Source: Chara braunii (Eukaryota; Plantae; Charophyceae). Taken from it: 64,000 bases of DNA. The notes beneath the pieces are model-generated. The model saw only the letters and a list, made by a program, of their open reading frames with translations, searched no databases and was not told the origin of the DNA. Below are positions 2,578 to 37,879 of the stretch, in pieces. The stretch is from positions 3,853,064 through 3,917,063 of the forward strand of contig BFEA01000021.1 of the NCBI GenBank assembly GCA_003427395.1. Reading direction: 5' to 3'. The position numbers and the translations under genes were made by a program. Each line of letters begins with the position of its first letter. Position 1 is the stretch's first letter.

Positions 2578-4356
2578 CTAGAAATCAATCGGCAGCCCCA
2601 GTATCCTGTGGAGCGCTACCCTGCCTCCCTCAGGTATCCTGGGAATGATCGGTCCCGTACTGACCACCAATCTCTTATGACTATCATATCTGGCTTTTCC
2701 TTCCTTGATATAAATTGCCAGAATGGAACACTCATCCCTGAGATGTCCTTCCTGAGTGCAGAAGAAACACCTCTGTCCAACCATGCTAGGCTTGATTCTC
2801 TTTATGTCTGGCTGGATTGAAGTCTCAGCCTGATCCTCAGCCCCCTTTGGTCAACCCAACTCAGATTCCCTCTGCCTTTTGCCCTGTCTTGGCAGAGGCA
2901 CAGCCACACTCTCACTTACCTCCTTTTCTGGTGCAGGAGGCTCTTTCCTCTTCTCCTCAGTCTGTACCCCCTTCTCTTCACCCTTCTTTCTCTCCACCAT
3001 CTATGCGGCTTCCTTTTCTTTCCCTTGATGGCTCAGTCTGAGTCCCTCCATTCCTTTCAATATTTCTCCCCATCTTTTCTCCCACTCTTGTCCCAACTTC
3101 TTCCTTTCTGAGATTTCATTGTCCAGGTCCAGTCCTAGCACACTGACCTAAGAGCCCAAGCCATCCATCCTTATTTTCATCCTTCCTATCGTGGTCGCTT
3201 CATTCTCCAACTTTCTGTCGCTCATAGTCAGAGCGACCCTTAATTGACTCACTTCTTTCTGTAATTCCTCCTTCCCTTTCTTCAATCCCTTCATTTCTCC
3301 CCTCATCTCTTTCATATCTCTTATCAACTTTTCCACCTGGGCATCCCTCTCATCTTCCTTCCTTCTTGTCCCACTTGCCTCTTCCCTTTCTCTGTCTTCA
3401 ATCGGCCCCTCTTCCTCAGTTCTCTTGTCCTTGGGAGCCTCGCCTCCTTCCTGGATCCTCTTTCCTTCTCCAGCCTCCTTTACTCCTCTCTCCTTTTTAC
3501 TAACCCTTTCCTGTACCTTTTTCCTTCCACTCTCAATTGCCCTTTTCTTTCCAAGTTTCTTCTTTCTTGGTACCATACTTGCCCTCATGCTTCATTTCCT
3601 CTCTTCCGCTGCCTCCTCCTCTTCCTGTTCATCTCACTCAGCCTGCTCAGATCCTTTGCTGTTGCTCTTCGGGGAGGCCCTCGTTTTGTTCTTCAGCCTT
3701 TCCAGAGGCACCTCATCTTCCTCTTCTTCATTCTCTGCCTCTTTCCCCTGTGGTTCAACCATCTTTCTTCCAATCCATAACCCCCTTTCTTGCAGCCTTT
3801 TCTTTCTTGTCTGATCCTGTCTGGCCTGGGTGTAGGCCATCCACAATTCTGTCGTTATTCTCTTCCAGGTCCGACTTCCTTCCACAATTCCTTTGACTTC
3901 CTCCTTTTCACTCTCTGTTGATCTTGCGATCAACTGTTTCTTCTTTTCATCCTTGTTCCACCCGCCTCTCTCCGCGGCCAGCTGCAAACTCTCGATAAAG
4001 TCCCCCAGATTGGTTTCATCAAACCTGAAGTCATCCTCTACATCATCCCTTGGGAAGACCCCCATGTCCTTCCATAACCTCTCCTTGCATACTTTTCACC
4101 TCATGCACCCTGCCACCACTCCTTCAAACCTCCTCTTGTAGATTCCTGCTCCACTCACATTCGCAATCTTCTCCCTGTCACCCCATTCTCTCCTGAATGC
4201 GTACTCTTCAAGGTCTCGCAAAAAAACTCGCAGACCGTCTCCAACCCTGTAAACGGGCAACTCGTCCAGATTCCTTGAGACTCTCTGATCCCTCCTCTGC
4301 CCTCCCTTTCTCAAGGCAGGTCCAGAGGGCCTTGCCACTGCTCCTCTCTGCGCCAT
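2578..4356 (-). pseudogene. Element A ORF3: second Gag-like protein (2x capsid-like domain, charged/coiled-coil linker, CCHC zinc knuckle), broken by in-frame stops
   Basis: ORFs 4096-4356, 3634-4065, 3148-3588 and 2578-2784 are all in one frame. Motifs LPVYRVGDGLRVFLRDLEEYA..W and FRFDETNLGDFIESLQLAAERGGW..TW; C-terminal CFFCTQEGHLRDEC. Confidence 0.75.
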
Positions 4357-4494
4357 GGCCTCTTCTTTCTAAGGGTCACGCCTGCACATAGAGAAGGAGC
4401 AAATGACAAGTACGAGGGTCAGATTATCACCAAGGCAACATTCCTTGTTAAACATAAGTTGATAATGTCCTCCTTTATCAGCTACTTACATACA

Positions 4495-4511
4495 CGCATA
4501 TATGTATACTC

Positions 4512-4542
<31 letters not shown>

Positions 4543-4712
4543 CTTACATGAGCGTATATATATACACATATCCTCACTTATACCCCTTTGCATCCACTTG
4601 TGTTCACATACACACATATATATATGTATGCATGTATGTATCCATATATGTATGAGCATGATGTTGGGCAATTGGGTACATACCTGCATAAGAATTGATA
4701 CACATATACATG
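4495..4712. repeat. (TA)n/(CA)-rich microsatellite between integrase and ORF3
   Basis: Direct inspection. Confidence 0.85.
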
Positions 4713-4759
4713 CCTAAACACCTTCCCAATCTATCAAAGTTTTCCATATCGTAGTTGAG

Positions 4760-7700
4760 GTTACCTCTTCTCTGACTCGGAACTTCTTCAGTCTAGATCC
4801 TGAGACCTAGTCCTTCCTTGGAGTCCCATCCATCTCTTCTAGCTCATATGCCCTATGAAGTCCCTGCTTCCTGACTTTGAATGGTCCTAGCCACCGTTTG
4901 TCCAATTTCCACGACCACTGCATTTTCAGAGAGGAATCGTAGAGTAGTACTGTCTCGCCAACTTGTAGAGGTTGGAGTCTTACTCTAGGTAGCTTGTCCC
5001 ACCTTTCCTTGTCCTTTCCCCTGCTGTCTGCAACGTTCATGGATGCTTCCTGCACCCTTTCTTCAGTGACGCTGATCTACCTTGCCCTAAGATCTAGCAG
5101 TTCCTCCAAAGTCAAGTTGTTCTCCAGGTCCTGCCTGCGCCAAGTTTTCAGGAAGCTTTCAATAGGAAATGTGGCGTGACGCCCATACCAGAGTGTCGCA
5201 GACGCATGTCCGGTCGTCCTTTTTATAGTAATGTTCTCCACAAAGAACACTGTTCTTAGGAACTTTGGCCAGAGATTCGGCTTTCGACTGGTCCATTTGG
5301 CCAGTAAGTTAGTAATTGTGCTATGGCCTCTCTCAATTGGTGCATTCGCTTGTGGATGTGTCCGAGTCGTATAATTACCTGTGACCCCCAATTCCTTGAG
5401 CAACTCCTTCACTTCCCCACACGTGAGCTCAGACCCCCTGTCCATCGTAAACTCCAATACGAAAGGATATCTGAGATAATATTCCTTAATACAATCCGTC
5501 AGCGTTGTCCCGGTCTTGTTCCTGATCGCTCTGCCATCCACAAATCCTGTAAGGTTGTCCCTTGCGTCGAATATATAGTTATATCCTCCAAGACCTAGTG
5601 ACATAGCCAATAGATCCAGGTGAACAACCGCCCCTACTTCCTTGATATATCTAGGATGCAGAGGTTCCTTGTACATGATAGGCGATCGAATTTGACAGGG
5701 TACACACGACTCACAGTATTTTCGCGTCATCTCAAACGTTCCTTCCCAGTAGTAGAGCTTCATTGCCTTCTTATAAGTAGCAGCAAAACTCCGATGTCCT
5801 CCGACTATCCCATCATGCAATGCAGTTACTACGTCAATCTGACGATTCCTCCCACATACAACCCGTCGCGGCGGCCCCCTCTTGTCCCTGATGAACAAGT
5901 GGCCACCTCTTACCACATAGTGGTCTCTCATCCTTAGAGTCTTCTCACTCACTTCTCTCTCTCTTTTATCTCCTGAGAGAAGCAACCCCATTTCCAGGAA
6001 AAATCCATCGCGCTCTTCCTCCCTCAATTCTTCTGAAATCTCCTCTTGTTCGAATTCTCCTTCCTTTTCCTCATCAAATTCATAATCGTCCCCAATTATT
6101 ATCTCGTCCGCTTTTACCACCCCTCTTTCATCATTCGCTAGAACTTGTAATAGCGAATTTGTCAGGTAGTACATTCTTCCCATCATGGCTACCTGCTCGT
6201 CAGCCTGTTGGACCCCTGCTTCGATTGTTAGTGGCTCATCCATTATCCTATAGTTCTCTGCCAGAGCCAACTCCATCATCCATTCCGTATTTCTCTCGTC
6301 CTAAGAGTCCTCCTCCTCTAATGGTGTGAGTATCAGGGAAGGTTCTCTCATAAATTCGGGAGGCGGATGCCACATCGGATTTCCTCTCCTCATTTCCTTA
6401 CTCTCGACAAATATGAACCAACAGTTCACGTGAGTATGCATGTCTTCCCCTTCGTTCAAAAACCCGTCTACCAGAGGTGTTTCTTCATTAGATTCTTCTT
6501 GATTTCCCCACTCAATTCTGCTCATGCCGTCCGCCCTGTTCTTGTTCCCAGGGATCCGTTCTAACTGGAAGTTGAACATCCAGATATAGGTGAGCCATCT
6601 AGCTATGGTTGGATCTGAGGGCGAGAAGTTCTTGAGCAAGTACACAAGCGCCCTTGGATCGATCCTGAGTACAAACCTCCTCCCAAAAAGGTAATGCCTA
6701 AAGATCCTTAGGCAATGCAGGACTGCCAAGGCTTCTCTTTTGAACTGTGAGTAGTTCCTTTCTGTTGAGTTGAGCGTTCGGCTTTCAAACCTCAGCGGCC
6801 TCTCCTTTCCTTCGCCGTCTGCCTGAATCAAGATGCCTCCCAGGGCGTTTGGCCCAACGTCAGTTTCGACTATGAAGGGTCTTTCCATAGTCGCATCGAA
6901 GTCTGGTACCCCTAGTACCAGACCTCCTTCTCTGAATTCCTTCTTCAATTCTTCCACCACTTCTTCTTGATGGTTTCCCCACTCCCATTCTTGATCCTTT
7001 CATACTAACTTCTTAACGTGCTCTGTTTTACTAGCAAATCTTTCTATGAATCTCCTCCAGAACCCACAGGTACCAAGGAAACTTCGAACTTCACCCACAT
7101 TTCTGAAGGGAGTGGGCCATTCTAGGATCTTATTGGTCTTCTTCTTATCAGGGCGCCGACCATGCTCGTTGCAAATGTATCCTAGAATGGTTACCTCCTT
7201 TACGTAATGTCTCGACTTCACTCCATTGGCGGTGAGGTTGTACTCTTCTAGTAGAGATAAGACTTCTCTTAACCCTTGAACATGTTCTCATACAAACCTT
7301 CTCACCTCTGGAGCCACTTCGGATTCATCCTTCTCAATCGGCCCCTTAACTGCAAGATCATCTATGTACGGCTTAGTGATTTGAGGGTTGATTGTTTGCA
7401 TAACCCTGATCATGCTCCGTTGGACCATGGCCACAACATTGGTCCTCCCTTGCGGCGCAACATTCATATGGACCAATCCCCTTGGCGTGTGCATCGTTGT
7501 GATGGGACGGTCTGCCAGATAGATCTGGAAACTGATCGTATCCGGAGTAGAGGTCGATGAGGGACACAATCGACCTACCTGCACAAGCTTCTGACAACTG
7601 GTCGGCGTTAAGCAAACCTTCTGCATCCCTTACAATTACCGCGTTCAGTCGTTGGAGGTCTTGCACCCATTTGAGTACCCCATTTGGCTTTACAAAACAG

Positions 7701-8182
7701 AACCAGGGAGAGGCATACGGTCCACTGGAGTACCCTGCCACATCCGTGCGGATTTTTCCATCTAGGTACTCTACCACCCTCCCGCGATCCTCGGGGTTGG
7801 GATACTTAGCCCCTCGGACATTCAATGGTTCGTGAGGTACAATATGGATGCGGATCATTTCTATCTTGTCGACATCCAACCTTCCACGCTGATCATCGTT
7901 AAAGGCATATGCCACATGCTTTTCTCGTATCAGCTCCTTCACTAATTCTTCCTCTTGACTTGTCAGAAACCCAGGTTCCACTATTATTAACTCCTTCTCA
8001 GTCTCATCGTCGATACGACAAGGCTCATTCTGGATGCCTCCCCTCATTCGCTGTATTAGTTCCCTTTCCTGATCATAATACACCCCTTCTTCTTGACTTA
8101 CTAGAACTGGCACAGGGTGACTCTTCTTATCTACCGTCTTGTACCTCCTTTTGGAGCCCTGCTTGAGCCCACCCCTAAAAAA
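4760..8182 (-). pseudogene. pol: Element A pol (RT, RNase H, integrase), with stops and a frameshift
   Basis: RT: LIDLYSGYDQ, PQG, YIDD. RH: FIVETDVGPNALGGIL, ERNYSQFKREALA. IN: H..GGH...CESCVPC, DLL, MDRGSE, PQANAPIERGH, C-terminal GPF motif. No chromodomain seen. Confidence 0.95.
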
Positions 8183-11100
8183 TGTTGACCCACAGCTTGA
8201 GCATTCAACGCATGCGGCACTATCATCTGAGAAGAAGAAGGCGGTCGATAAACGAGATCGATCCTTCCCCCTTCTGGATCGTCTTGGATCCTTTCTGCGA
8301 GTGCCCTGACTGCGTTCGGATCAGCCATCCTATAAGCCGATACCAGTTCCACTGCATCACTGATATTAGTTAGGCTTAGTACAAACCCTTTAGCTTCCTC
8401 ATCATCTGAGTCTTCCCCTCCTTCTTTCCATTTCAATTCTCTCCTCCTATTCTCAGACTTTTCGAATGTGTAGGATCCGACATTGAGCCTATTTTTCGAG
8501 CTGTGTGGGCCGGTATTCCTACAGGTGATCACCTCAAAGTTTCCACAGGAAGGATCGCACAAGATGACGAATATAGTGCCGTCATGCTTGTTCATAATGA
8601 GTGATTCAGATCTGCACAGGAACGCCCTTCCCAACAATACTGGAAGGTCCAAGCTGGGCATGACGTAGAAGCACGTATGTACCTTGACTCTTCCTATTTC
8701 TATCACTACATTTGACGCAACCCCCGTATATCCGGTCTTGCCGCTGGCTCCATTGAGAAACCCGTAGTCGTTTTCATATACCTCTAGTCCTAGTTTTACT
8801 GTCGTTTCTCCGTTTATAATGTTCATCTCTGCCCTGGTGTCAACCATCCCAGGACACATCTTCCCCTTTATCATAATATCAATGGACCCTGTTCCCACGA
8901 ATTCCAGTCCATTTTGCTTCCTGCCACGCTCCAGTTAGCCTCTTTGGGAATTAAATCCCCCATTCGGACCGAGGCTACTTTTCGGCGTGATAACCTAGCC
9001 TTCACCATCTCTCTTAACTTAGGAGCCGAAGCGAGGATTTCTTTCAGGTTTAGTAGTTCATTGTGCCCCTCCAGCAGTTTATTCACCAGGCCTTCCAGAT
9101 CCACCCCTTCTTCGATCGAGGTTTGGTACTTTCTCTTCTTGCTTGGTCTCGTATCCCCTTTTGATCTTCCTTCCTCAACTTCACCTTTCCTTCTCTTAGC
9201 CCTTATCTCCGCCTGCCTTTCTTCTTCCTCCCTAATCTTCTCATCCTCATCTTCATCACCCTCTACCGTGATAGGCGGTTCTTCTTCTGCTGGCTGGGAA
9301 GCCTGAGCTTGTTCCTTTTGAGGATTCCCTCCTGCGGGTCTTCTTGTTGCGAATGGAATTGTTCCTCTTACACTTCTCTGACTTCCACTGTTCCTTGCGG
9401 CCATATTGGCTTCAATATTCTCGAGTTGGGTTCATTTGGCCCATCTCCTGATCCCCCGCGCCCCATGGTAAATACTTTTGGGCATCCAGCTCCTTCTCTT
9501 CCTGCTTCTACACATATCTCTTGAAGCCTCAGATGTAGCCTCTGCATTTTGTCTACCAAGTCTTCCATCCTATCGAACGTGTCTCTGACGTTGGCCCTAA
9601 CGTCTTCCTCCTCTGTTTCTTCTTCCACCAGAGGCACGTCTCCCTTGTCTTCTCCAATCCCCATCCTACTCACTTTCTCTTCCAAGTTAGTTATATCTCC
9701 CACCTGCACTACTGGTTCTTCCCTTTCCTGCCAAATTCGGAACATCCCTGGTGCGTTGGGACCAAGCGCGGCCACACGAAGAGCCTCTTCCCTTGTGCCC
9801 CCTGGAATCTCAGGATCAGTCACCCTACCATTTTGGTCGAACACCTCGCCTTCCATGTTTGATATTATGAGCCCTTCACACTCGTCAAGCTTCCTAACAT
9901 GACATCGTTTTACCTTGTGCCCTTTGATCACGCAGTGGGTACAGACGCATTCACTGTAATCAATCCACCCCCTGCCATATCCTTGTCCGTTTCCTCTACC
10001 ATACCCCCTTCCATAGCTTTGGTCGTATCCACGACCATATCCTTGCTGGTATTCCTGCTCGACTAGATTTGCACCCCCTTGGGGCTGCCCCCAGTTCCTA
10101 CCTTGGTTTCCACCGCCTCTGTTACCTGCTCCTCGTTCCCCTGGTCCCTGATTTCTACCACCATTCCTACCTCTTACATGTTCTTATCCTTGTCCTTGTC
10201 CTTGGGACCTGTTCTGGTTTTGGCCACCTTGGCGACTAGATCCTGCTTGGTTCTGCCCTGTTAGTTGAAGTTGTCCCGTGTTTTGGTCTCCTCCCAAATT
10301 CTGATTCTGGGGTAACATGGGATAAGGACCCTGCGTAGGCCATGGTCCTACCGGGAAATACCCAGGCCATGCTCCCATAGGCGGACCCACGGGCCATTGA
10401 CCATATTGAGCTGTGCTTGTTGACGGCTCCTGTCCATATTGGACTATCGCTTGTTGAGTTACTTGACCTTTTCTCGACCATTGTCCTCCGATAGCGATAT
10501 TTTTAGACTTTCTCTGACTCTTGGTTAGTTTGTCCGTTCCTTCTTGTCCTCCATCTTCTGCCTCTTCCTCTCCGTCTTCCTCTTCCTTCCTTCTCTTTCC
10601 TGACGGCTGTGTCACTGTTAACACTTTCGATGGTGTCACTCTTTCCCTAAGCTCTTTTATCTCGTTTGCCATATTGCTCAGCACTCCTCCTAGTACACTA
10701 TCCGTTCCTTGGATCGTCCCTACTGCCTTTCTTTTCTTTCGTTCGACCTTGATTTGGTGATGGAACACTTGGTCCATGTCTCCCGCCATGATGTTCCTCT
10801 TTATGGTTTCCCAGATTGTCTTTCTCCCGGCGGCTCCCCCTCGGGTTAGTTCCATCGCCTCATCCCCAGAGAACTTCCCTAGAAATATGACGCACTGCAT
10901 TTCTTCAGACAGTCCTGGGACCCTCTCCGCTGTCTTTTCGAACGTGTTGGCGAACGCCCTGATCGTAGTGAAGTCATCTCTGTTCATATTATAGAGATGG
11001 TTAATTGTGAGCAGGCTATCTCCTAGCTTAAACGTCTTCTGCATGCCCTTTTTAAACTCAGCCCAATCATTGTTGGACTTTCTCACTACCTTTTCCACGT

Positions 11101-11332
11101 CAGAGGTGCATTCCCACCATACATACTCGAACAACTGGGCGAACTTCTCGGCCGGTGTCAATTGGTTGAAGATTTGCTCAAGTAGTTCTAACCAATGAGT
11201 GACCCTATCACCTTTGAAAGGGAATATGTCTATCCTCGGTAGGTTAGATCTCTTTATCGTTCTTTTCTCTAGTAACTTGATGATTTCCGCCGCGGTGATT
11301 GCCGGCCCTCCGTTGGCGCTGGCATCGCCCAT
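8131..11332 (-). pseudogene. gag: Element A gag-protease, frameshifted by decay
   Basis: Capsid-like IFPFKGDRVTHWLELLEQ..DWAEFKKGM (10184-11389); zinc knuckle CTHCVIKGHKVKRC at ~9900-9945; aspartic protease GMVDTRAEMNI...PVLLGRAFL (8131-8898). Confidence 0.9.
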
Positions 11333-11496
11333 TTTTTCCCCCTTTTCTTTCTTGGTTCCTGCTAGACCGTAGACCCTGTTAAGATACACATAACGACCAT
11401 TGATCCACCCTCGTCGTCACTACCTTGACGTATCTTTTACTCTTGTCACTTGTTCTTACTCTATATGACCTTTCATACCTTTTTTTTTTCTTTCTC

Positions 11497-12275
11497 TCAA
11501 CCGAGTATCTCCTCTAGGAGCACCCAGTCCCCGTGCCAAAAGCTTCTAACCATACCAAATAAAGAAGGGATTTCATCTATAAATTCTTCAATACATGCCT
11601 CCCGGCAAAGATTGCGGCAGTAGGTCGAGAGATCTTCCAAACGATAGATGCGTAGATACGTGTTTACCACACATAGTACGTTATAGAAATCCCTATCCTT
11701 TAGTTTCGGTCCCATTTCTAAGTATAGACGGTAAACAACTTCCGATGCCACGGATTCGAAGCCCATCTCTGGAACAGATCGGGGTGCGAGTACTGCTCGT
11801 CCTATATTCTGTATCCCCCAAAATGCTTCATCAATTATGAAGCTCGGAAGCGTGGTTTTAATGTACCTTGTTGGATACACGAACTCATCGGCCCACTTCG
11901 CTTCGATTGACTTTATAACCTCTCCTTCTTTTCTCCAATACATCCTCCTTAAAAATGCGTCAAGGGTCATTCCGGCTATCAATACGTACCTAAAGACGGG
12001 GCGACTTTCCCCTATCGCAAGATCGATCGCGTGTGCCCTCCAGAGAAGGACCGGTAGATAAAGTGTCACTTTTACTATTGTCTGTCTTTCCCCCGTGGTC
12101 CACTCATTTTCTATCCAAAGGAAAGCTTCCTGTCCTACCGGTTCCCACACCACGAGTCCAACTCTTCATCCAGATCTATCGTTCTCTTCGGCAGTGTCAT
12201 CTTAACCCCTCCTTCCTTTGGCTCGGGCAGGTTGATCAGAAAGCTCCGATCAGCGAACCACATTAAAGGATTCAT
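11497..12275 (-). pseudogene. Extra ORF upstream of gag, copy 2 (unknown function)
   Basis: 218-aa ORF 11497-12153, paralogous to 12487-13089; upstream ATG at 12275 preceded by an acceptor-like TGTAACAG. Confidence 0.6.
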
Positions 12276-12486
12276 CCTGGTATTCCTGTTACAACAGCCA
12301 AAGAAAGAACCTTTCTTTTCTTAGTAACCACTCAATTTCCCATTTCTCAATAATTTTCTATTTCAGTCTTTCCTAAGCACCCCTTCTTATCTGATCAAGA
12401 ATCCCCTGCTTCAGTTCTTCCCAGTAGACATGCCTATCTGCCGAATAGTATTGACGTGCATATAATTCGACCCGTGATAGTATAAT

Positions 12487-13089
12487 TTATCGTTCCCTTT
12501 CTTCGATCAAATGCCCTATCTCTAGGTATATGTAGTATATCAGCAGAGGGGTAGATGCATGATATTCTCTCTCAGGTATTGCCATTGCGGCTTCCGCAAC
12601 CCTCTCCACTCGGGTCCTCCCTCCGAAGGTTGCATTTACGATGAACATGGGGAGGGTCCCTCTTAGATACGCTGCTGGCGGAAGAAATTCACTCGCCTTC
12701 CTTACCCTCACAGTTCCTATGACCCTCTCAAATTCATTCATACTAGCATCTCTTCTTCTAGATTCGAGCGCTGACTCTGCTATCGATAACAGTCTCGAGA
12801 GAGATCGGTCAATACCTAGTACTAAATTTATTATGATAGCTTGCAGATTTTCTGATGAGATGTACAGGGTAACCCTCTCTACGGCACAGTTTTCGCCTCT
12901 AACCCATCCAGACTCAATCCAGATGAAAGTTTTTTCTCCTACAGAAATCCTCCAACAATACCCTGTCTCTTCATTCTCTTCATGGCGACTGCGAAGATTC
13001 ATTATAAGACCATGCCTCATTTGCACGGGCTCTCTGATCGTGATTTGATATCGGACAGAAGCCATCTCCCTTTCGTCGATATACTCCAC
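12487..13089 (-). CDS. Extra ORF upstream of gag, copy 1 (unknown function)
   Basis: 200-aa ORF; WIESGWVRGE..VERVTLYI, EFLPPAAYLRGTLPMFIV and YYIYLEIG align with the neighbouring ORF. Confidence 0.6.
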   Translation of the reverse strand: MEYIDEREMASVRYQITIREPVQMRHGLIMNLRSRHEENEETGYCWRISVGEKTFIWIESGWVRGENCAVERVTLYISSENLQAIIINLVLGIDRSLSRLLSIAESALESRRRDASMNEFERVIGTVRVRKASEFLPPAAYLRGTLPMFIVNATFGGRTRVERVAEAAMAIPEREYHASTPLLIYYIYLEIGHLIEERER

Positions 13090-13889
13090 CTACCACATAA
13101 CACAAACCAGCCCACACCCCTCTTTATTTAGCTAGCAAACTTTTGACCCTAGGAGCCGATTTTATTCCGCCACCTTCTCCAACCATTTTGGGCCTTTATA
13201 TAACCATTTTCTACAACAAGTAAGATATTAACCCACAGATCTCTATTTGACATAATATAAACAACAAAAATGTTAGGCACACCCTCCTATCAGGAGACGC
13301 AGACTGCGAAACCACAGGAGAGTCAGGTAGGCGAGGTATCTCGCGAGGCCCTTGTTGGTGAGGTAGTGGAAGGACGGTCAGCTGCCTCTCTTGAGACAGT
13401 GGGTAAGGGCTATCATGCGGACGACTAGGCAGCTCGAAGCGTGGTGGAGATTCTCCATATGCCTCGTGTACCTATATGAATAATAAGCCATCTCATCAGG
13501 GTCTGGGGTATGCATGTGTCTTTCCTCCCGGTACCTCTTTGCCCTCAATCCTTCGTCCTTTTTTTCTAGTCCTTCATCATTTGTTTTCCACTCCTCCCTT
13601 TCTTTGGTCAAGTCCACAGGCCTCTCAGGCGCCTTCCCCTGTCTGCCGCCTCTTCCTCTACTAGTTCCGGTCCCACGGCCCTTATGTGCCATACTCGCTA
13701 ACTTTCAGTATAAGTAGGACAATTGTACTTATGTATATTTAGTCCCTATCTTACACACCGATTTATTCGGACCAACTACTCGTCACTAGCTATTAAAGTC
13801 TTAGTTAATTACTGACTTTTAATAATTGTTGTTCTGTCTGGATTTTGCTTTACCCGAGTTAGTTCACTAAGGACCTCGGCTAGAAGCGA

Positions 13890-13909
13890 GATCCCCGGCA
13901 ACGGCGCCA
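13890..13909 (-). promoter_or_regulatory. Primer binding site, tRNA-Asp (element A)
   Basis: Plus strand GATCCCCGGCAACGGCGCCA equals the 3' end of plant tRNA-Asp(GUC) plus CCA; 2 nt from the LTR end. Same PBS type as Athila elements. Confidence 0.93.
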
Positions 13910-15540
13910 CCTATCGCGCGCGTCGGTCCCACACCCAGATGCAAAGTAGTTTTTGTGTCGGACCTCACGGTCGTGTCACGCAGGAGTTTCTTTGTCACTT
14001 TAACGCAATACTAACTCTGACCGTGCGCGCGTGCTATACCTCTCGCGACTCCCTACGACAGGTAAGGGATCCCGCGAGGTACAACATTACCTCCACCTGC
14101 GGGAGCTGTCACCATCCCTTAGGTGGGCGTATCCCTGCTGAGCTACTGACCTACGTGCGAAGACTTTTATATGCAATCGCAGAGGTAGGCCAGCCGAGGG
14201 CGTTTTCTTGATCGCTGTAGCATAGGCATACACGCGGTATAACGCATTAAGACTGATCCGCATGTCGAGCCCCGAGGTGCTAACTCTCCGGACCGACTAT
14301 CTAATCAGGTCGACTTCTCGGACAGTTTTCCACGCTTAACTAACTATGACAATGACTCAACGTTTACTTTGCTCATCATGTGAGAAATGCCAGGGTCAAA
14401 CCCTTTTGTAGTCTCCTATTCACTGAAACAGAAGCCTAAACAAATGACTTTCCGATCCCGACCAACTACGATCTCATTCACAAGTGTATATATATATATA
14501 TATATGTATGTATGTAGATCAGGGGAGCTGACTGAGCGGTGAACCTCACTTTCACGATTGTCGTGCCCCTTTGCCCGAATTTCTCAGACGATCCCAAACT
14601 CAACAGACAACACAAATGTCCAACACCTATGCAAATGCAAGAAACCACATACACGCATACAGATACAGACACAGAATGCACTACAAGCGTCAACCTTTAG
14701 TCCATTCATAGCATGCCACTCACGCCTCAAACCCTTGAAAACAACATTCCTTCCTAACCCTGACTCCTTTTATCCCAACCCCACACGTTTTCGAAAACTC
14801 CTGAGTGTGATTTGGACAATTTAGGCATAGATACAGGAGGAAGATTTATCTGTTCCCTTCTTAGGTCTTGTCTTAGGTGTGGGTGTCAAGCCATGGTGGA
14901 AGTTGAGTCGGAGTTCTACCGACCTGTTATCCAATGATAACAGAATTGCTGTTCTTACGGATTCCCCGTAAGTTCTCCGAAGTATCGCAACCTGTAGACA
15001 CAACACAGTCCAAGAGAAACTTAACATCCCTCTTCCTAACTAATATCTAGACAGTTCCTTCTAGACTCTGTGTCTTCTGTCCGACTCCTATCCTTAACTA
15101 ATCGTTTGGGCTGTTGCCCTCCCGCTTCAGGTAGTGAATAGTAATTCACCCCCTTTTTTACTGTCACAGTAATTCTCCATATCCCTTTCACTATCTCATT
15201 TCTATCCCTTTTCTGGATTATTCTGTCTGAGTTCCCTTCCTTCTCCCAACACACAGGAACACATTATCAATTCAACCTGTGGAAAAGAATCTCAAGGAAA
15301 GAAATCAGACAAATGAATAGTCTCTCTCTGAGGCAAGATCTCACTTATCCCCTCTCAGTAGAATCAGAGATAGTTAGTTAGGACTGAACAATGCAGATTG
15401 TGGAGAAAGTTAGCAGTGGTATGGCAGACCATTCATGATATGTCCACTAGTTACTGGAACTTGTTTGACAAAGGCAAATCTTATGGGTCTTGGCCCTTGT
15501 GAGCCAAAGCACACTTAGCGGTAGGTTTATCCTATGACTC

Positions 15541-23015: not shown

Positions 23016-25226
23016 ACCAAATTTTCCCCCTTTTCAATCTTTCTTTCTCTTCTTCCTTCGTTGATCTTCCCTTCTCTCTCTTCTCTTCTTCTCTCTCCTC
23101 CTTATGCCCTGATGGGCGATGTGCGTATGAATCAAGGATCCGTAATGTGATGAATTATGACAATGTGGTGTGAATAGAATTTCGACAAGCATCATGCGTT
23201 CAAAAGGGTGCTGAATAGCGCAGAGAAGACTTAGCCACAAGTCCTGACCTGACCGGAAATGACCCCCTTTTCGTAGTAAAAGATCGTACCGCGGAATTCT
23301 AGAATGCTGATGACTAAACCCAATCAACGTTTACAATGCAGACCAAACATACATCATTCTCACTACACGACATGAAGGGACTGTACAAACGAAGAGGAGA
23401 GGCTAAGATAGAGAAGAGGAGGGGTGTTAGACGAAAGAGCGGGAAAGATGGGTATGCCGTCAACACCAGTCTGTGATACAAGTCCCAAATAATCCCCGTC
23501 CAGTGTCTGAATCGCGATGTTGAGTCTGGATCCAATGTCGTCGAGTCTCGAGTCACAACTCTCTCCCCCTTTTCTCCTTCTCCATCTCTCCTCTCTCCCT
23601 CTCTCTCTTTCTCTCTCTCACACACACACACACACACAACACACGTTCCATCGATAGGATGAGCAAAACGGGATGAATCTTTCACTGAGACGTGGAAATA
23701 TACACTACCACTTTTTGGTCTGCTCATTCTATCGATCCACGTCGCGTGTGGCGAAGCGTGAGTCGGAGACTTAGCTGTTCGGCGATGCGTATCTCACCCA
23801 ATCTCTCCCTCTCTCTCTCACTCGCACTTTCTCCCCTATCTCTCTCACTCTCTCTCTCGATCCGTTGTCGTCGCCATCTTCAGCGTCGTCATCGTCGTCA
23901 GTCGGTCTTCGTCATTGTTGTCTGACCGTACGTTCAGGTACGTATTCTCCCCTTTCTCCTTTTCTCCTTTCCCCCTCCTTCTTTCTTCTCCCTCCTTTCT
24001 TCCTTCTTCCTCTTCTCACCTCCTCTTTTCCCGCCGGCGTTTTCTGCCCCAGTTGCGATCGCTGCCCACCTTTGCGTTGCTTGCCTGCATTCCTTCCCGT
24101 CTCTTTTCTTCGTCTGTGCCCCCGCTGTACTCCAGTGCTCGTATTGCCTGACCCTGCGGCGGGAGCCTACCGACCTTAACCGGTTGGCCTCTTTACTAAG
24201 TGAATCAGTCCCAATATCGGGGCGTGATTCATTTGGGCAACTCGGGGCAGGAAGGTCGTCGAGAAAACACAAAAAAAGTAAAAGAAAATCAAAACTGAAA
24301 CAACGAATCTAACGGGACTCAACCCCGTAATCCCTCCCTACTTTGCCAAGTGTCGAAGCCCCACGACACTCGGTTCTAACTAACAACTAGCTGTACTAAC
24401 TCCTACTTGTAAGGTCGAGGCTTCAAATCCTGCCATTCAGAGGGTGGATGATAAAAAAGAACAAGCCCCGTCCCCTTTTGTAGCTAGCAAAAGAGCTAGC
24501 CCAAGGGCAGGTCGAATTCGATCCCTGTCTCCTTGGCTCAATTGGGCTAGCTCTTACCACGGTATGGTAGAGAGCCGCCTTCCTATAAGTAGGTGTAGTA
24601 GGTTTGACTTTCCCAGCCTGCGTGCTTGTGCACGCTTGCCAGTTAGTGCGTCCGTCCTTAGGCTTGTCGATTTGAGTATGCGCGCGCCCTCAAGGGCACT
24701 TATTTCATCGGAAGGTCCGAAGGCCGGTACTTAGCCGTGGCCGCGGCATCAAGGGTCGTAGCGGGGTAATTACTCAAGTGGTGGGCAGGCTGGTACCACA
24801 CCAAGCAGACGTAGATGTGGCGGATACTCGACCCGGAGGCTGAGTAGGGGAAGACAAAGACCGAAATTCTTTAGAACACCCAGTACCGGAGGGAAGACAG
24901 GCACTGGACCAAGTCTCAGTGCGTGTCATAGACCTACCCGACACAATCATCATTCCAACTGACCCTTCGACCTCTTCTGTCGAGAGGTATTACTACTGAT
25001 CCTAATCACCACGGCGCGCGTCATAATAACGCGTGTGCATTCTTAACGAAATTTTCTTACCAATTTTTCCCCCGGCCTCAGTGGTCGAGGATTTCTCTTC
25101 CAGTGTCACGCCAAGCGTGCACACCCCTCTTATTTCCAGATCGGCTACGTCATGGTAGTTGATGCCGCCATCGTGCCGAATGCAAAGACATGGCAAAATA
25201 CCCTTGTAAGGGTATTTTGTCCGACA

Positions 25227-26177
25227 CCGGACAGGTCACCTCGGTACTGGTCCGACTCCAACCGATGTCCCAGAGGACCCAGCCTGGCCGCGGAGGCTGC
25301 CGGCCCCTATGCATGTCAGAATGCCTGGCTTCACCCACCGGTTCCGCCATCAAGCGCGGCTCGCTTTTCGATGGCTCATGGAGGTACCCACCCCGATCCC
25401 GCGCGCGCATACGGGCGCAAAAAACAAAGGAAATAAATAAATACTAGTAACATAAATTTTGAAAACAAATAAATTATACACGGATAGATACATAAACCCC
25501 CACAGAGCGTGCGGCGATCAGGCGGAAACCGCGGCCCCCAAGATTGCAAAAGGCGAGGGGGATAGTCCCAAAGGCCCATCAACCCCTCAAGCCTTTCCGC
25601 CGCGCTCCTCCGCTCCCTTACCGCACGCTCTTAGCCTCGATCCCTGCACCTCCGCCGCAATAGTCCAATGTCGTAACCGATAGGGCTAAGCCCAAGCCTG
25701 GTACTAGCCGGCGCGACCTCCCATATAAGGTGGTACCGCGCGGTGCTCCGGGCCAAAATACCGCTTCGGCCGTCCTTTCACCCCACATTTGTACCTGCGG
25801 CCCCTAGGTGCCTGTGCCGGGCCACCGCCCCGCGCTGTGGCCATCCCGTGTGCCTACCGGCATGTCAATCCTACCGTCGGTCACGCGCGCCGACCAAAAA
25901 CGGACTCTCGGCCCCTAACCAATCCCGTGGCCTGGTACGGGCCGTACCACGATCCGGGTCGGTCGGCTACCCCGGCCGCCTGCTCAATCAGAAAAATCAC
26001 ATGCGCGCCCTAAAATTGCGCACCCACGTACTCCCTACCGGGACAAGGCATACCTTTGCCTATGTGCTGGCGACCCTCGCATTTCCCGCACGGGCACTCA
26101 GAATCCAGGTTGACCGAGTCTTTCTGTCACTTGCAAAAACCAGGGTGGATACCCTTGTAAGGGTATTTGCGCCGACA
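25227..26177 (-). repeat. Element B 3' LTR remnant
   Basis: Colinear with 51884-52834; ends ATACCCTTGTAAGGGTATTTGCGCCGACA. Confidence 0.92.
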
Positions 26178-28231
26178 GCTTACCGGACCATATTAAGCGA
26201 CGTCCCCGTCGCTCCGCCAGATCAGAAAGCTATAAATTTCTTCACACTCCAAGTGCTGACAAGATTAGAACCAATCCGATTAGCCGACAGACTCAGGGTT
26301 GAGGCCTCCATCAAACCATGCCAACACAACTATATGGGTCCCCATTGTCCTGACATGAGGACGCTGGTGTATTACGCATCAATACTACAGCATAAGTTCC
26401 AAAGGCCCTCAAACCATCCTCTTCCCCTTCGTCCTAGACAACCGTCGGCTCCTCGTTGGGTGTCCCAGTTAGCCTCTATCTCGTAAGTAGAGCCATAACT
26501 AGGGACGCGGGCTTCGAATGGGACCTATGAAGGCATTCTTTGCCTTCTTCTAACAAATTCCTCTCAAACAAAATACACACGTATAAGCTGGTAGCCTCTC
26601 TCGGCCTTTTCTGCAGTCTAGTACAAAAATGTCAGGTCCCCATCTGGGCCCACCGTAGCCTGGCTGATCGGGCCAGGTCTACGGCCCACCACATTGTTAT
26701 CTTAGCGGCGGTATCCTCCCATTGGTTATACGATGATAGGCGCTCTTCCTGACAATCAGTCAGTCAGGGTTTTCCAAAAGACTCGACTCTTATCCCGCGG
26801 GGTAATTTCTCTGGGGCGGGCAACTCCCCTTAAACTCTTACCTCGCGGGCCCGCAGCCAGGTTGTGCCGGCCAGCAGCCATCCACTAGGGGTTGCGCCCA
26901 GGTGGCACTAAACTTTACCGTTAGCTTGGTATTCCCTCAAATATGTCTAAGGATTAGCACAGGTGGCCCGACGGGGCATCACAAACAATTCACGGGCCGC
27001 TGCGGGACTACGCAGGGGTCTGAAGGCATTTACCGACCCTCCCATAATAGGCACGACACCTTTCGCTCAATCACAAACAGTCCCCTTGCCGGATCCACAA
27101 GGCCGCGGCTCCTGACTTGATCAGAGCCAGTAGTCGCCCACCCTGAGGCATCTCTCGCCCTTTTCAAACGGCTCAAGCAAACATGGTTCCCCCCTCGTCA
27201 GGCTTTATCAACACAAACATTGCTTTCCATACCATTTAATTTTTTCCCACCCTTACTCGACGGAGGGTGTTTCTTACAAAAGATTTCACGGTCATCCCTT
27301 CTCTGTATGGGATGACTCTTCACACGACCTCTCCCAACCCATGAAGGGGCCTTGATAATAATGCAATTCCCACCTTGCAGAACCATGAAGGGGGTCTCAG
27401 TCACCAAACAACTCAAACTGAGGGACCCCCTTCTGGGTCCCTGTACAACTTAGACAATCAATATTTGGTGTGGCCTAAACATGCAAATTCTTAAATCCAT
27501 CAATCCCGTAGGATTCTCACAATTTTTCACAAACAGGCCGCACTCCCCCTCCTTATACTCTGCCCTCTCGCCCGCTTGTAAGCAGACCGCACGAGTATAC
27601 CGGAGGGTAGACAGCTTCACTGTTTACACAATCATACATACGAGGCGTATCCTGTACACCTCCCACACAAAGCCAATCATACATTAAGACAAAGCCACAC
27701 ATGTAAGAGTGATAGTGGTCGTCACAAGACAAGTCTCATAGAGTCTAAGCTCATGATACGCTCAGGGAGTGGAACGCCTCCCTCAAGACCCAAACACAAA
27801 CACCCAACTCAAACTCTGTTCACCCGAGCATGGCTCCCGACCCCACTGTACACCCGCGGAATACACTCGGGGACACAACACCTGCCAAAATCTAATGGGC
27901 GCCTAACCCCCTGTCTCACCTAGCTAGGGGAACTCATACCCAAGTCTCCCTCAAAACTCAAGTAGTCTATGCACCGCGAAATCAAAAGTGGACTAAACAG
28001 CCCCATGTGTCCTACGGCCGATTCTCATGCCCTAAGCCATAGCCTATGAAAGAAAAACTCAAAGAACCTCAATCAACTATATCTGAATAAGCAGGCAGGG
28101 ACTCATCCTACCACCTCTGAAGTATGCACACATCTAGGGCCCCCTCTGCCAACTAAACATATGTACACCTCCAACCTGCCCCCCTGTGTACCAACTACTC
28201 TAACCGTAGTGACACATAGACAGACCAATCC

Positions 28232-31191
28232 CTACTTACACAATTCCTCTTGGTTCTGCCTATACAACTGAGCCCTGCCCCCATCTGTAGCTCGCTCTAC
28301 TATCCTGCCCTGCCTGTCGTAGAACTTGCCGTTGGACTCCACAACGCGCCCCTCGGCTTTATCCTCGAGGAGTTCTGGGCAGTCCACGGCTCTATGCCCT
28401 TCCTCCTTGCACCAAAAAGAGGAGGTATCGTGCCACGTGGCAGTCTTCTTCTTTCTCCCCTGCGAACTCGATGCCGAAGGCGTCCCCATGGTCTCAGTAC
28501 TCACCTCATGACACGAGGGCAATCCCAGATGGCCCTGAGGTCCGGGCTCCATAGCCTCAGCACCCTCACACCTTCGTGCGGCTGTGCTCACCGGCCTGCA
28601 GTCTGGCATATCTAACCCTCGGGGGCCCTCCTCATGAGGCCCCTCTGTCACCACCACCTCATCCCCACATGCTCCTGACGGCTGAGAGCCCCCCATCGCG
28701 GTGAGCTCACTCATGACCTNNNNNNNNNNNNNNNNNNNNNNNNNNNNNNNNNNNNNNNNNNNNNNNNNNNNNNNNNNNNNNNNNNNNNNNNNNNNNNNNN
28801 NNNNNNNNNNNNNNNNNNNNNNNNNNNNNNNNNNNNNNNNNNNNNNNNNNNNNNNNNNNNNNNNNNNNNNNNNNNNNNNCTCACTCATGACCTCCTGCCG
28901 CTGCCCTCCTCATGAGGCCCCTCTGTCACCACCACCTCATCCCCACATGCTCCTGACGGCTGAGAGCCCCCCATGGCGGTGAGCTCACTCATGACCTCCT
29001 GCCGCTGCTGTTGCCGCAAGTCAAGCCCTCCTAAGCTCGTCCCCGTGGCCCAGGAGCCCAGCTCCGCCCTCAACTCTCCCAACCTCGGGGCATGTTCTGG
29101 AGCATCGAGTCTCTGAGGCCCCTCCTGTGGCGTGCCTATCCCCATGGCTGCCGCCAACTCATGCAAACTCGACCCTCTCCTCTCCGTGGACATAGCCATA
29201 AGTGACTCTTGTGCGCCACCCTCCTCTCTGGCCGTGTCCAAGGGCACCTCCTCCACGGGCTCAGCCTGCTGAGGGACCTCCACCGCTGCTCCCTGGCTCG
29301 GCGAAGCGCGCATCCCTCGGCCCTGGCCATCGGCACCGGCTCGTCCCGCCTGACTAGCCTCCCAGGCCGCCGAGAGCCTACCCACAACGGCTGCCATCTC
29401 CCCAAATCTCCTCTCCCACTCAACCTCTCTGGCCTGGCTCCTCGCCTTTTCCTCGGCAAGCCGAGTAGTCAGGTGCTCTACCTCCAACTCTTTGACCCTG
29501 AGCTCGTTGCTGAGTAGGTTATACCACTGGAAGGACGTAACTGCCATCTCACATATCCTCCGATCCATGCGCTCGATCGCCATCCTGGTCGCAGAGAATC
29601 CCACGTCTCCCATCTCCCTCAACTCACTCGTCCCCTCGCCTGTCGGTCCTGCCTCTCGTGGCCTCTGGCGGGCTGCATCCCTCTGGCTCTCATACCTAGT
29701 CCACAATTCGTCGTGCTCGCTCGACTTGGGCTCGACCGGCGGTGTCGACTCTATTCCCGCTGCCTCCATCTCAGCCTGCCTTGCATGTATTTCATCCAGA
29801 CGGATCCGCACTCGGGCGGACTTCTCTTCGCGGGTTTCTCTCGGGGTTCTTCTCACTTGCGGCCCCTGGCCCCCTGGAGTCGACGCCTCCCCCTCCATCC
29901 CTTCGCTCGCGCATGGCACTACTAGCGGTAACTCTGCTGGAACGGGATCCTCGATAACCGGGCTCTTGGTCACATGCGTGGCCGAGGGCAAGTCAAGGGG
30001 CGCCTCCATCCTCGCTCTCTCACACACTCCCTGATTCTCCGCCTCTGCCTCCTGCTCACGCATAGTGCTGGCCTCAGGGGGAGACTCCGAAATCTCCTCG
30101 CTGCCCGGTTCAGGAATCCCCTCTGGCCATGAACGCTGTGCTGGCTCTGGAGCTGGGGAGCATGGAGGGGTATCGTCCCCAACCGTGATCACCTCCCCTT
30201 CCTGAGGCCGTACCGGATCCGGCCGCTCGGCTGCCATCTCAGGATCCTGTGGCTCCTCTTGGCCCCGCATGTCTGTCTCCGTCTCGGTGTCCAAGGGTTC
30301 CTCCAATGGCACATAGTACGTCGGCTCAACTAAGCCCTCCCCCAATCGTGAGGCCTCCCATCGAGATGCATCCAGATGAGTCGCTAAGCTTCGGAATGGC
30401 GTCTCTCTCGGTATATCCAGTTCCTGCGCTGATTGCAATGGCGAGGGCGGTCTCAACTCCTCGCTCGTAATCCGCCGAAACTCCACCGCCCGGAGGCCAC
30501 AAGCAGGGAGCGACTCCTCTGCCAATGCGGGCCCTACGGGTTCATCCTCCCGCTGGGCAGGGGCTCCCCTCCTCTCTCTGGCCAGCCTCGCCTCTCTCGG
30601 TGCCGGTTCCCTTGGCCTCTTGCTTCGCCATCGCCTCTCAACTCTGGGCTCGTGCCTCTCGTGCTATGGCCGTCCGAACACCCTCCTGAGCTGGGCTTGA
30701 CAGTCCTCCCAGTCTCGAGCCCTCTCCCGAATCTGTTTGGCCACCTGCCTCTCTGCCCCCCTAGTCCAGATGAGTAGGGCCTGCACCCATTCCTCCTGCG
30801 CAATTCCCAGACTCAGCATGTAGTGCTCATACGCGGGGATGAACTCATCCGCGTTCCCCTCCTCCAATCGAATGGGCATGCCATCACGCCCTCTGGGGGA
30901 AGCTCTCAACCTCTGCATCCCGGCCTCCACGTCTGGCCAAGTCAGGGCCTCCTCACATATCTGAGCGACAGGCTCCTCGAACCGCCCTACACCCCTCAAG
31001 TGGTAGATCCTCTCCGCCACTGACCACCCTCTCTGTGTCGCATGATCCAGATATACGTCCAGGAAGAGCTCAATGTTGTCGTCATCGAACTCAGGCGTAG
31101 GCTCCCTCCTAGGCAGCCCATGCTGCTCGCCCCCTCCTGCTATCCTCTGGAGTCCCTGGCGTGGCCGTGTGTCCCTCCCGCCCCTCTGCAT
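28232..31191 (-). pseudogene. Element B ORF3: second Gag-like protein (2x capsid-like domain, long acidic/Pro-rich and coiled-coil region, degenerate CCHC knuckle)
   Basis: 30664-31248 (PEFDDDNIELFLDVY..RGW..TW; RLEEGNADEFIPAYE..DW) is in frame with 28885-30525. C-terminal SFWCKEEGHRAVDC lies after the N gap. Confidence 0.75.
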
Positions 31192-31349
31192 GACTGGCTT
31201 CGAAAAGTCAGACCTGCACAACAGGCGAAAGACAACAAACAGGCACACAGCAGGGTCAGCAACCGAGTCATTGGCCTAGGAAAATCCCACATACTCTCCA
31301 CACCCATCCACCTCAATCACCCACCTATCCAATCATTCGACGAGGGTAG

Positions 31350-32967
31350 AGCCTAGGCGGGACTCTATTCCTAACGAGGTCTCGTGGTGCCTTACCTATT
31401 CCCTGGCCACGAACTTCAGCCTTGTCCCCGATACCCAATCCTGCCACCCTGCCCCATCCAGCTCTTCAATTTGGTAGACCCCAAACTCGCCACACCGCAC
31501 GATCCTATAAGGTCCTAACTATTGTTTGTCTAGCTTCCTGGACCATTGTTTTTCCAACGAGGAGTCATACAGCAATACCACATCTCCAACCTTCAACGGG
31601 TCCTTCCTTATTCGGGCCATTTGGTCCCATCTCATCTTGTCCTCTATACAACTTCTCTCCACCTGGCCAGCGGCCTCTCGTAATCTCTCCTCAGCGGCTT
31701 CCACCTGCCGCGCCCATATATCGAGCAGTTCTTCGAATGCCAGGTTCACTTCGAGGTCCTGGCGCCTCCACGTCTTCATAAAGCTTTCTATGGGAAAGGT
31801 GGCGTGCCTTCCGTACCATAGCGTGGCTGGCGCATACTTGGTATTCCTTTTCACTGTAACATTTTCCACAAAGAATGTCGTTCTCAGGAATTTCGGCCAC
31901 TGGTTGGGCCTCCCCTCAGTCCACTTAGCCAAGAGGTTCGTGATGGTACTATGCCCTCTCTCCACAGGAGCGTTTGCCTGGGGGTGCGCAGCAGTAGTAT
32001 AGTTCGCTACAACGCCATACCCCGCAAGTAAGGTCCGTACCTCGTTACAGGTGAATTCCGACCCCCGGTCCATCACCAACTTTTTGACGAACGGATAGCG
32101 CAGGTAGTATTCCTCGATGCACCTTGCCAAAACTGGGCCAGTCTTTGTGCGAATAGCCCGACCGTCAACGAACCCGGTAAGGTTGTCCCGTGCATCGAAG
32201 ATATAGTTACTTTCATCCTCCCCGAGTGGCATGAACAACAGGTCCAGGTGTACGACCGCACCCACTTCCCTTTCCAGCCTGGGGTGCAGAGGCTCCCCAG
32301 GCCTTTGCGCTGACCTTTGTTGGCAAGGTACATAGGACTGGCAGTACTTGATGACCATAGTCAGCATTCCATCCCAATGGTATAACTCGCTTATCTTCGT
32401 GCACGTGGCACTAACCCCTTGGAGCCCCCCTGCTATACCATCGTGTAAGACTGCTATGACATCAATCTGCCGGTTCCTCCCACATACGATCCTCATGGGG
32501 TTCTCAACCTGTCCCTTTATAAACAGGTGGTCATCTCTTACTACGTAGAGGTGTCTCATCTTCTGGGCTTTTTCACTTGCGTCCCTATCCCTTATCTCGC
32601 ACGACAGGAGTAACCCTAACTCTCGATAGATCCCGTCATACTCCTCAGCACGGAAGGCCTCCCTAATCTCTCCCTCTTCGAACTCGTCGTCCTGGCTCTC
32701 AGGAATAAGAAGTTCGCCCTTCTCGGAACCGGTTGCGCTCCTCTGGTCAAAGTTCCCCTGCAGGAGCGTGTTGGTAAGCAAGTACATTCCTCGCATTAGT
32801 TGCTCATGCTCCTCTACCTGGTTGGACCCTCCTCTATCGTCCTTACTTCCTCCGCTAGACTATGTGTCCCTGCGAATGTCAACCTCATCATCCAGCCTAC
32901 ATCCCTACTCCCCCACGGATCTTCTTCCTGGAAGGGTTTAAGGACCAACTCCTCCTTCTGCTCGTAC
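31350..32967 (-). pseudogene. pol: Element B integrase (3' part of pol)
   Basis: ORF 31519-32796: HLDLL, MDRGSEF, HPQANAPVERGH; strongly similar to the A integrase. Confidence 0.95.
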
Positions 32968-36207: not shown

Positions 36208-36732
36208 TAACAAGCGGGTACTTGACAATTGTGGCTCCGTGATGTGAATGACAGCATCGCACCCCTCACAATGCAACACCAGTGAGCTGTTATAACAGGC
36301 TAAAGTGCAATGGCACACCGCGCAGCTGTTAAATCGGAATCGAGATACAAAGGGACAAAACAAAAAGAAAATAATAGGCGCGTGGAACAAAAGACAATAA
36401 CACAATCCAAAGAGATTTCTTGCCCGGAATGACTCATAAACCAATAAGTTATGTATTCGAGGAAAATGAATGTCTGGACCGAATCCAGAGCATCCCTGCC
36501 ACTGGCACCACCCTTGGCCCGATGTTGTCAATTTCTCATAGAGCCTGCAACTTCATTAAGTTCATTTTAACCTGCACAACCAACCAACACATGCCATGCA
36601 CATCCACAGTTGTTCTCAGCCCATGCACTCACAACCCCCTCATTCGCCCTTTCCCCTCAATCCCCTCGTTCGCGCTTTCCCCTCAACCCCCTCGTTCACC
36701 CTTCCCCCGATGGGTTCATTCAGATCTAATGC

Positions 36733-37610
36733 AGAACTTTTGCTAATGTAGACGAATATCAGAAATTTTCATATATGATTATGTTGAAACGAAATGCAAG
36801 TATCTGAAATTTTAGATATTATTGCGTTGAAACGAAATGCAAGCATCAGAAATTTCAGACAAAACGAGATGCTCTTGTCACAAATTTTCAGATGCTTGTT
36901 GAGTAAAAACGAAATACTAATATCAGAAATTTTCAGATCTAACGAAATGCTAGTATCAAGAATTTTCAGAATTTGTTGCGAAAAGAAAAAAAATAAGAAA
37001 AAAAAAATTCGGATATTTGACGAAGTCCTGCTTGATTTACTAATCACCGATCAATAGATCAAGCAAGCCATGTACTTTGATTGAGCGGGTCCTCTGATTG
37101 AGAGGTCCGCTCCGATGCCAAACTGTTGCATACCATACAGGTGCAAGACAGAACAAGAACCGCCCATAATAACAGCAAAACTTTTGCTACGTAGACGAAT
37201 ATCAGAAAATTCGAAATGCTTGATATCATAAAAACGAGATGCTACTTTCAGAAATTTTCAGATATTATTGCATTGAAACGAAAATGCAAGTATCAGAAAT
37301 TCCAGACAAAATGAGATGCTCTTGTCACGAATGTTTAGAAGCTTGCTGCGAAAAAACGAAATACTAATATCAGAAATTTTTAGATCAAACGAAATGCTAG
37401 TATCACAAATTTTCAGATATTTTTGCGAAAAGAAAGAAAATAAGAAAAATAAAATTCAGAGATTTGACGAAGCCCTACTTGATTTACTAATCGCCGATCA
37501 ACAGATCAAGGAAGCTATCTACTTTGATTGAGCGGGTCCTCTGATTGACAGGTCCGCTCCGATACAAAACTGTTGCGTACCGTACAGGTGCAAGACAGAA
37601 CAAGAACTGA
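36733..37610. repeat. Two ~440-bp tandem units built from GAAATGC/ATCAGAAATTTTCAGA subrepeats, inside the hAT element
   Basis: 36733-37160 aligns with 37177-37610. Confidence 0.85.
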
Positions 37611-37784: not shown

Positions 37785-37793
37785 GAATCAATC

Positions 37794-37827
<34 letters not shown>

Positions 37828-37879
37828 GGATCCGAACATCAATAGATTCGGCGGGATTGATTTATTGATTGTTTGATTG

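Follow-up and report, generated by a model that had tools for sequence, protein, structure and literature searches.

Two decayed retrotransposons and their third open reading frame

The 64,000-nucleotide (nt) stretch of the Chara braunii genome analysed here (GCA_003427395.1, contig BFEA01000021.1, positions 3,853,064 to 3,917,063), referred to throughout as the window, contains two decayed Ty3/gypsy long terminal repeat (LTR) retrotransposons, both on the minus strand: element A, running from about 14250 to 2300, and element B, from about 45700 to 27600. In each, a sense open reading frame (ORF), named ORF3, lies between pol and the 3' end, and 118 related gene models carry such a frame as well. 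The initial annotation of the window had proposed retrovirus-style splicing from a single donor in the LTR to an acceptor in front of every ORF, giving messengers that lose the primer binding site (PBS); all seven splice words that it named lie where it placed them on the minus strand (A 14090, 4382-4383, 11376, 12286 and 13090; B 45537 and 31214-31215). In what follows, the firm ground is the ORF3 acceptor, together with a product predicted to be capsid-like; a donor in the LTR is a reasonable bet, and the claim of an acceptor before every ORF is weak.

The decayed gag-pol region of element A (4714-11332, with the gag ATG at 11332; coordinates are on the minus strand unless otherwise stated) has Pfam matches to gag, DUF4100, protease, RNase H and integrase, in gypsy order. 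Element B, which is interrupted by repeats and a hAT transposase, has matches to protease, RNase H and integrase, and reverse transcriptase itself has a Pfam match in the related gene models only. This domain order, together with a PBS beside a CA-ending 5' LTR, identifies both as Ty3/gypsy LTR retrotransposons. The LTR end and PBS occupy 13892-13913 in A, where the LTR ends in TA and those of relatives in CA (C stands at 13913 in 52 of 52 reads of sequencing run X2), and 45330-45351 in B, where the LTR ends in CA (45350-45351) and the PBS has one mismatch; the PBS of A is one that we take to be of the tRNA-Asp type. The LTR assignment follows from the PBS, from the CA end, present in B and restored by the reads in A, and from a third, isolated copy of the adjoining LTR block. 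No 3' LTR copy of this block was found within the window for either element, both being broken by other repeats. The window copies are themselves broken, and the RNA described below derives from relatives.

The ORF3 acceptor in sequence and gene models

Ahead of ORF3, both elements carry a CTGAC branch word, which the initial annotation did not mention, a pyrimidine tract, and the acceptor GTGCAG/G (the slash marks the splice boundary). In A (4382-4422) the branch word lies at 4418-4422 and the AG at 4382-4383; in B (31214-31259) they lie at 31255-31259 and 31214-31215, respectively. The branch word is 36-45 nt upstream of the acceptor, the acceptor stands 25 nt (A) and 22 nt (B) before the ATG, and all three components are common to the two elements despite ORF3 proteins that are only about 26-35% identical. 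A filter of at least 12 pyrimidines in 20, no AG just upstream, and a CTRAY word was passed by six of the 707 YAG sites on the 22.4-kb element sense strand, two of the six being the ORF3 acceptors.

Gene models carry the observation beyond the window. With B ORF3 as the query, 118 of 1001 candidate proteins passed an expectation value (E) of 0.001, all of them C. braunii gene models, and 88 of these have, before the ORF3 methionine, a seven-residue peptide equal to the translated post-acceptor leader (82 start SDF). The 8-mers upstream of this peptide are of 68 different kinds, drawn from the whole of gag-pol, and F, Y, C, H, N, D and I are missing from the 87 residues that precede it, against a background of 18.5%; since no preceding residue falls outside the set that NNG can encode, the predicted junction would be at the same base as in B. 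The pattern was matched by none of 22 additional gene models. On this sequence evidence the ORF3 acceptor is intact, and visible to gene predictors, in many copies, the models being predictions and not RNA evidence. Its description as a strong acceptor is borne out by the filter, the gene models, and RNA contigs that break on its base (see below), and of the GT/AG conservation anticipated across copies, the ORF3 AG is the part that holds.

A TGA lies one codon past the ORF3 acceptor in both elements (GCG TGA at 4376-4381; GTC TGA at 31208-31213), and would stop any upstream frame arriving in phase. Downstream of A ORF3, at 2298-2340, a further acceptor-like site (CTGAC, tract, TTTCAG/G) was noted by eye, outside the scanned range.

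RNA across ORF3 and its acceptor

Sequencing runs were chosen by species label, and their reads stem from relatives of A and B, mostly less than 95% alike. Alignment on A drew on four runs, X1 to X4 (76, 789 and 79 reads, and 55 contigs), and alignment on B, over 30400-32400, gave 255 and 7 reads and 2 and 1 contigs. ORF3 of A is covered in six of six bins in all four runs; the X1 and X3 coverage consists almost entirely of first mates on the plus strand, which for a library of the ordinary type means sense RNA. Over the 22 bins of gag-pol and its upstream region (4654-13651), coverage extends to three bins in X3, six in X4, 18 in X2, and one in X1, a simple-repeat artefact; gag and the extra ORFs of A are almost uncovered in X1 and X3. 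These two runs contain an ORF3-heavy pool of sense RNA with gag-pol nearly silent, and their near-absence of pol coverage favours a donor upstream of gag. Depth in the A bin 4245-4653, partly skipped as repeat, is what would be expected if coverage were complete as far as the acceptor and absent past it.

The junction itself is approached by two contigs from different studies, of 3160 nt (X4) and 3091 nt (X7), which match B at 31161-31215 (55 letters, 7 differences). Beyond 31215, both have the same 28 purine-rich letters where the pyrimidine tract is expected, ending in AG, and the far side of both reads as an ORF3-like peptide. Four sense reads of X3 share the contig variant at 31193, and X3 depth is zero over 31271-31471. 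The change of sequence at the acceptor is probably a splice, and the contigs are likely to be spliced ORF3 mRNA of a related family, whose own protein was absent among the 236 proteins retrieved. As to the junctions predicted for RNA, the X4 and X7 contigs switch at the ORF3 acceptor, and no joint is listed on A or on B 30400-32400.

A predicted capsid-like product

ORF3 of element A (2578-4356) has several in-frame stops and a CCHC knuckle near its end, its N-terminus being putatively capsid-like by homology to B. ORF3 of element B (28232-31191), which carries a stop at 30664-30666 and a run of N at 28720-28879, has capsid-like lobes predicted over residues 24-175 and a terminal zf-CCHC match, and its C-terminal knuckle region is similar to that of gag (E 3e-4). 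The ORF3 N-terminus matches no Pfam family, has no significant PDB sequence match, and no significant BLAST likeness to B gag. Modelled from 31 sequences (predicted local distance difference test 76.8), the B N-terminus gave ten top Foldseek rows that are all Arc/dArc capsid chains, at E 0.14-0.56. Realignment placed residues 96-175 on dArc1 with a Z score of 9.3 and a root-mean-square deviation of 2.3 over 73 residues, and residues 24-100 on the capsid C-terminal domains of Ty1 and PEG10 with Z scores of 6.8 and 6.0, all of these scores lying below the caution line for helical bundles. Structural modelling therewith suggests that ORF3 is likely a second Gag-like protein, with two retro-capsid lobes and a zinc knuckle, and not an env.

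The candidate donor and the 28-nt leader

The candidate donors, AG/GTAATG at 14090 in A (GT 14089-14090) and AG/GTAAGT at 45537 in B (GT 45536-45537), lie 178 and 187 nt inside the PBS-proximal LTR end, exactly as first annotated, and 181 and 190 nt from the PBS. They sit in conserved LTR blocks at 14015-14245 and 45463-45694, the A block being 77% identical to that of B and 74% identical to the third, isolated copy, on the plus strand at 57881-58103, which has AAG/GCAAGT (GC 58029-58030) at the donor position. The donor word alone is common, since AG/GTAA occurs ten times in the 22.4-kb element sense strand. In a consensus fold of the three copies, a long multi-helix with two hairpins, the donor is predicted to be unpaired between the flanking hairpins, and nine pairs are changed on both sides; the structure derives from the same three LTR sequences, and is weak for that reason. 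The block is a candidate structured R/U5 RNA element.

If the contigs are spliced, their 28-nt leader should reflect the exon in front of the donor used. Anchored at the junction and compared with 1066 AG/G[TC] sites, the leader ranks the LTR exon of B 14th, that of A 47th and that of the third copy 418th; the best LTR score was reached by 37 of 2000 shuffles. In sequence, it resembles the LTR exon only weakly. Given a splice, the leader being the LTR exon of a diverged family member is slightly favoured. Searches of metagenome contigs and of viral contigs returned no stretch with the leader in either, and for the ORF3 locus 368 pattern matches in metagenome contigs, none confirmed.

A spliced ORF3 message and its alternatives

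The likeliest reading, although it falls a little short of an even chance, is that ORF3 mRNA would be spliced from the LTR donor to the ORF3 acceptor, and that gag-pol would be expressed from unspliced RNA. A second Gag-like protein would then have its own spliced message, in the manner of env, made from an LTR donor as in foamy viruses. Provided that splicing starts at the LTR donor, and only then, the geometry entails loss of the PBS: it would lie 181-190 nt inside the intron, and the resulting ORF3 mRNA could not be primed for reverse transcription.

Several observations weigh against this. At low depth, and with reads mostly below 95% alike, no splice joint is listed on A or on B 30400-32400, and the same alignments list no start or end sites of transcription. 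X2 covers its 18 of the 22 gag-pol bins on both strands, and may contain DNA or antisense RNA; its reads also pass unbroken through the tract, and some of the ORF3 excess could stem from oligo-dT 3' bias. Among the loose ends listed at the LTR donor, beyond which there are 105 further rows, 41 and 52 reads in X2 and three contigs in X4 are read-through, which is what 3' or solo LTRs would give, LTR coverage not being assignable to the 5' or 3' copy. The contigs match B over the 55 letters only, with the 7 differences, and carry 30 letters past the junction, below the 31-letter rule for bridging; X4 and X7 are only presumed to be RNA, and the gene models carrying the junction are predictions. 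The leader is identical to no LTR exon in the window. Finally, the donor position is kept in three LTR copies, once in the GC form, but within a block of about 230 nt conserved throughout at 74-77%, so its conservation, the other half of what was anticipated for GT/AG sites, is not independent evidence.

The alternative that survives best, possible if on the unlikely side, keeps the ORF3 acceptor and takes the donor from elsewhere: from integrase, the pol end, or an exon of the host or of neighbouring sequence, at a single locus that is expressed and perhaps domesticated. That the 3.1-kb contig is single and unbranched points to one dominant locus, and the leader is not an LTR exon of the window. 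Unanchored, its best match is to a stretch of A integrase (19 of 24 letters, with a similar peptide), a point against the LTR donor, but one equalled by three of 40 shuffles and not anchored at a donor. The pol end offers AG/GTAA at homologous positions in A (4763-4764) and B (31394-31395), which with the TGA one codon past the acceptor in both would suit such a junction, and A has a second rival word there, CAG/GTATGT at 4682-4683. However, the two pol-end words rank 72 and 301 of 1066 for the leader, no joint from such a word is listed in the read alignments on A or on B 30400-32400, both of which contain the word, and pol is nearly uncovered in X1 and X3, contrary to a pol-internal exon.

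Unlikely is the reading that there is no productive splice at all, with an internal promoter or 3' bias as the source of ORF3 RNA, a DNA copy that has diverged or been rearranged behind the contig break, and an LTR word that belongs to a structured R/U5 element or a U1 site controlling polyadenylation. The missing joints are consistent with it, as are the X2 reads that run on past the LTR donor and across the tract, and an LTR block that is conserved and folds in its entirety; in foamy viruses, the R-region donor has a U1 role independent of splicing (PMC3694450). Yet the break falls exactly on the acceptor base in two studies, purine-rich sequence ending in AG replaces the pyrimidine tract, and distant families have both the branch word and the tract in common.

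Acceptor words before the other ORFs

Element A also has two tandem extra ORFs between the PBS and gag (11497-13065), 31% identical over 177 amino acids and absent from B; they match no Pfam family and no homolog of either was found, that of ORF 2 being sought among 207 candidates and in an atlas search whose best score, 0.82, is a lead only. A 108-amino-acid open frame between the PBS and extra ORF 1 (13380-13710) may be one more small ORF, the third.

Before extra ORF copy 1 (ATG 13065), the AG at 13090-13091 (GGTAG/G) has 10 of 20 pyrimidines and no branch word, is matched or beaten in pyrimidine count by 83 of the 707 YAG sites, and is weak, probably a chance occurrence. That before copy 2 (ATG 12275, in a broken frame), at 12286-12287 (GTAACAG/G), has 14 of 20 pyrimidines, again without a branch word, is equalled or exceeded by 15 of the 707, and by its sequence is a plausible candidate acceptor. 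The AG at 11376-11377 (TTAACAG/G), 44 nt before the gag ATG of A, is weak, with 11 of 20 pyrimidines and 59 sites as good or better, and is not kept in B, where GTAACGG stands with GG at 45024-45025 before the gag ATG at 44993, confirming the mutated site noticed initially. The gag and extra-ORF-1 words are unremarkable; gag gene models nearly all begin at the gag methionine, and are uninformative on its acceptor.

The full scheme of the initial annotation, in which one LTR donor would serve gag, both extra ORFs and ORF3, with all messengers lacking the PBS, is decidedly improbable: an AG/G does lie 11-44 nt before every ATG in A, the extra-ORF-2 tract is a fair one, and both contigs stop precisely 30 letters ahead of the ORF3 exon, perhaps at a branch of the graph from which the leader would run on into other sequence (a sharp 5' end would explain this too), but the gag and extra-ORF-1 sites are ordinary, B has no AG at gag, and X1 and X3 have next to no coverage of gag or of the extra ORFs.

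Relation to known systems

A spliced ORF3 message is likely, but the label 'retrovirus-style' is better narrowed to 'foamy-virus-style': a donor within the LTR is the layout of foamy viruses, unlike that of HIV-1, whose major donor lies downstream of the 5' LTR, the foamy virus donor being inside R (PMC3694450). The comparisons in this section are with the available portions of the cited sources. In foamy viruses, the major donor in R, upstream of the PBS, feeds the spliced mRNAs of downstream genes, and RNA structure sets its exposure, but they are retroviruses with an env and a spliced pol, whereas the Chara elements are non-enveloped retrotransposons with a candidate donor (PMC3694450, PMC7828637).

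Among plant elements, the nearest likeness is to Bagy-2 of barley and other members of the Athila clade, with spliced RNA for a post-pol env-like ORF, known here from summaries (PMC7264820, PMC3735527); in contrast to these env-like ORFs, Chara ORF3 is predicted to be capsid-like with a CCHC knuckle and not membrane env-like, and the host is a charophyte alga. Diaspora of soybean shares a tRNA-Asp PBS, every donor predicted for it falls within the LTR, and acceptors are predicted on either side of the start of gag, but this is prediction only, the donors lie 1.4-2.2 kb upstream of gag, and no ORF follows pol; its authors, in 2005, knew of no intron upstream of gag in any LTR element (PMC1142308). 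In C. elegans, the gypsy element Cer1 CERV expresses a post-pol ORF through a spliced mRNA, but uses exons in the gag frame, with no capsid likeness reported in the source (PMC10309623). The Copia elements EVD and BARE1 splice a dedicated mRNA for structural protein, which helps to part messenger from genome, but their intron lies at the gag-protease junction of a single ORF, with neither an LTR donor nor a second gag (PMC5580714, PMC3735527). Gypsy elements of Arabidopsis showed no conserved splicing (PMC5580714), non-chromovirus lineages commonly carry extra ORFs, of diverse kinds (PMC6317226), and the accessible text of PMC13547354, PMC7828637 and bioRxiv 10.1101/2025.03.14.642691 holds no closer case. 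A literature search that took in neither the Chara genome paper with its supplements nor most of the subscription literature returned nothing on splicing of Chara retrotransposons or on a spliced post-pol second gag.

The expression and function of the post-pol extra ORFs of plant LTR retrotransposons are described as a largely open question (PMC7264820). Here, a high-copy algal family supplies a junction exact enough to be tested, and a product, predicted to be capsid-like, that is transcribed in two runs in which gag-pol is nearly silent. Should the donor lie in the LTR, the layout would be the retrotransposon counterpart of that of foamy viruses, and would neatly withhold messengers from reverse transcription. 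The second capsid could, speculatively, be a structural partner, a dominant-negative brake on copy number, or a restriction factor kept by the host. A broader proposal, doubtful as it stands, is that a charophyte Ty3/gypsy lineage independently evolved a foamy-virus-like layout, in which one structured LTR donor would yield separate PBS-less mRNAs, chiefly for a duplicated second capsid after pol, messenger and genome pools would be split by splicing alone, and particles would perhaps be built or regulated by two Gag-like proteins.

Other features of the window

Within the pol of element B, hAT transposase remnants with Hermes DNA-binding and dimerisation domains lie at 33901-36552, next to arrays of tandem and inverted repeats at 36800-40300. 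Another repeat family, with a near-palindromic AAATACCCTTACAAGGGTATTT word (1266-1785, 24627-26213, 51884-52835 and 59835-60411), follows each element at its 3' end and is present again elsewhere in the window. At 61540-62350, reverse-complement donor words beside GAA-repeat tracts suggest exons of a minus-strand host gene.

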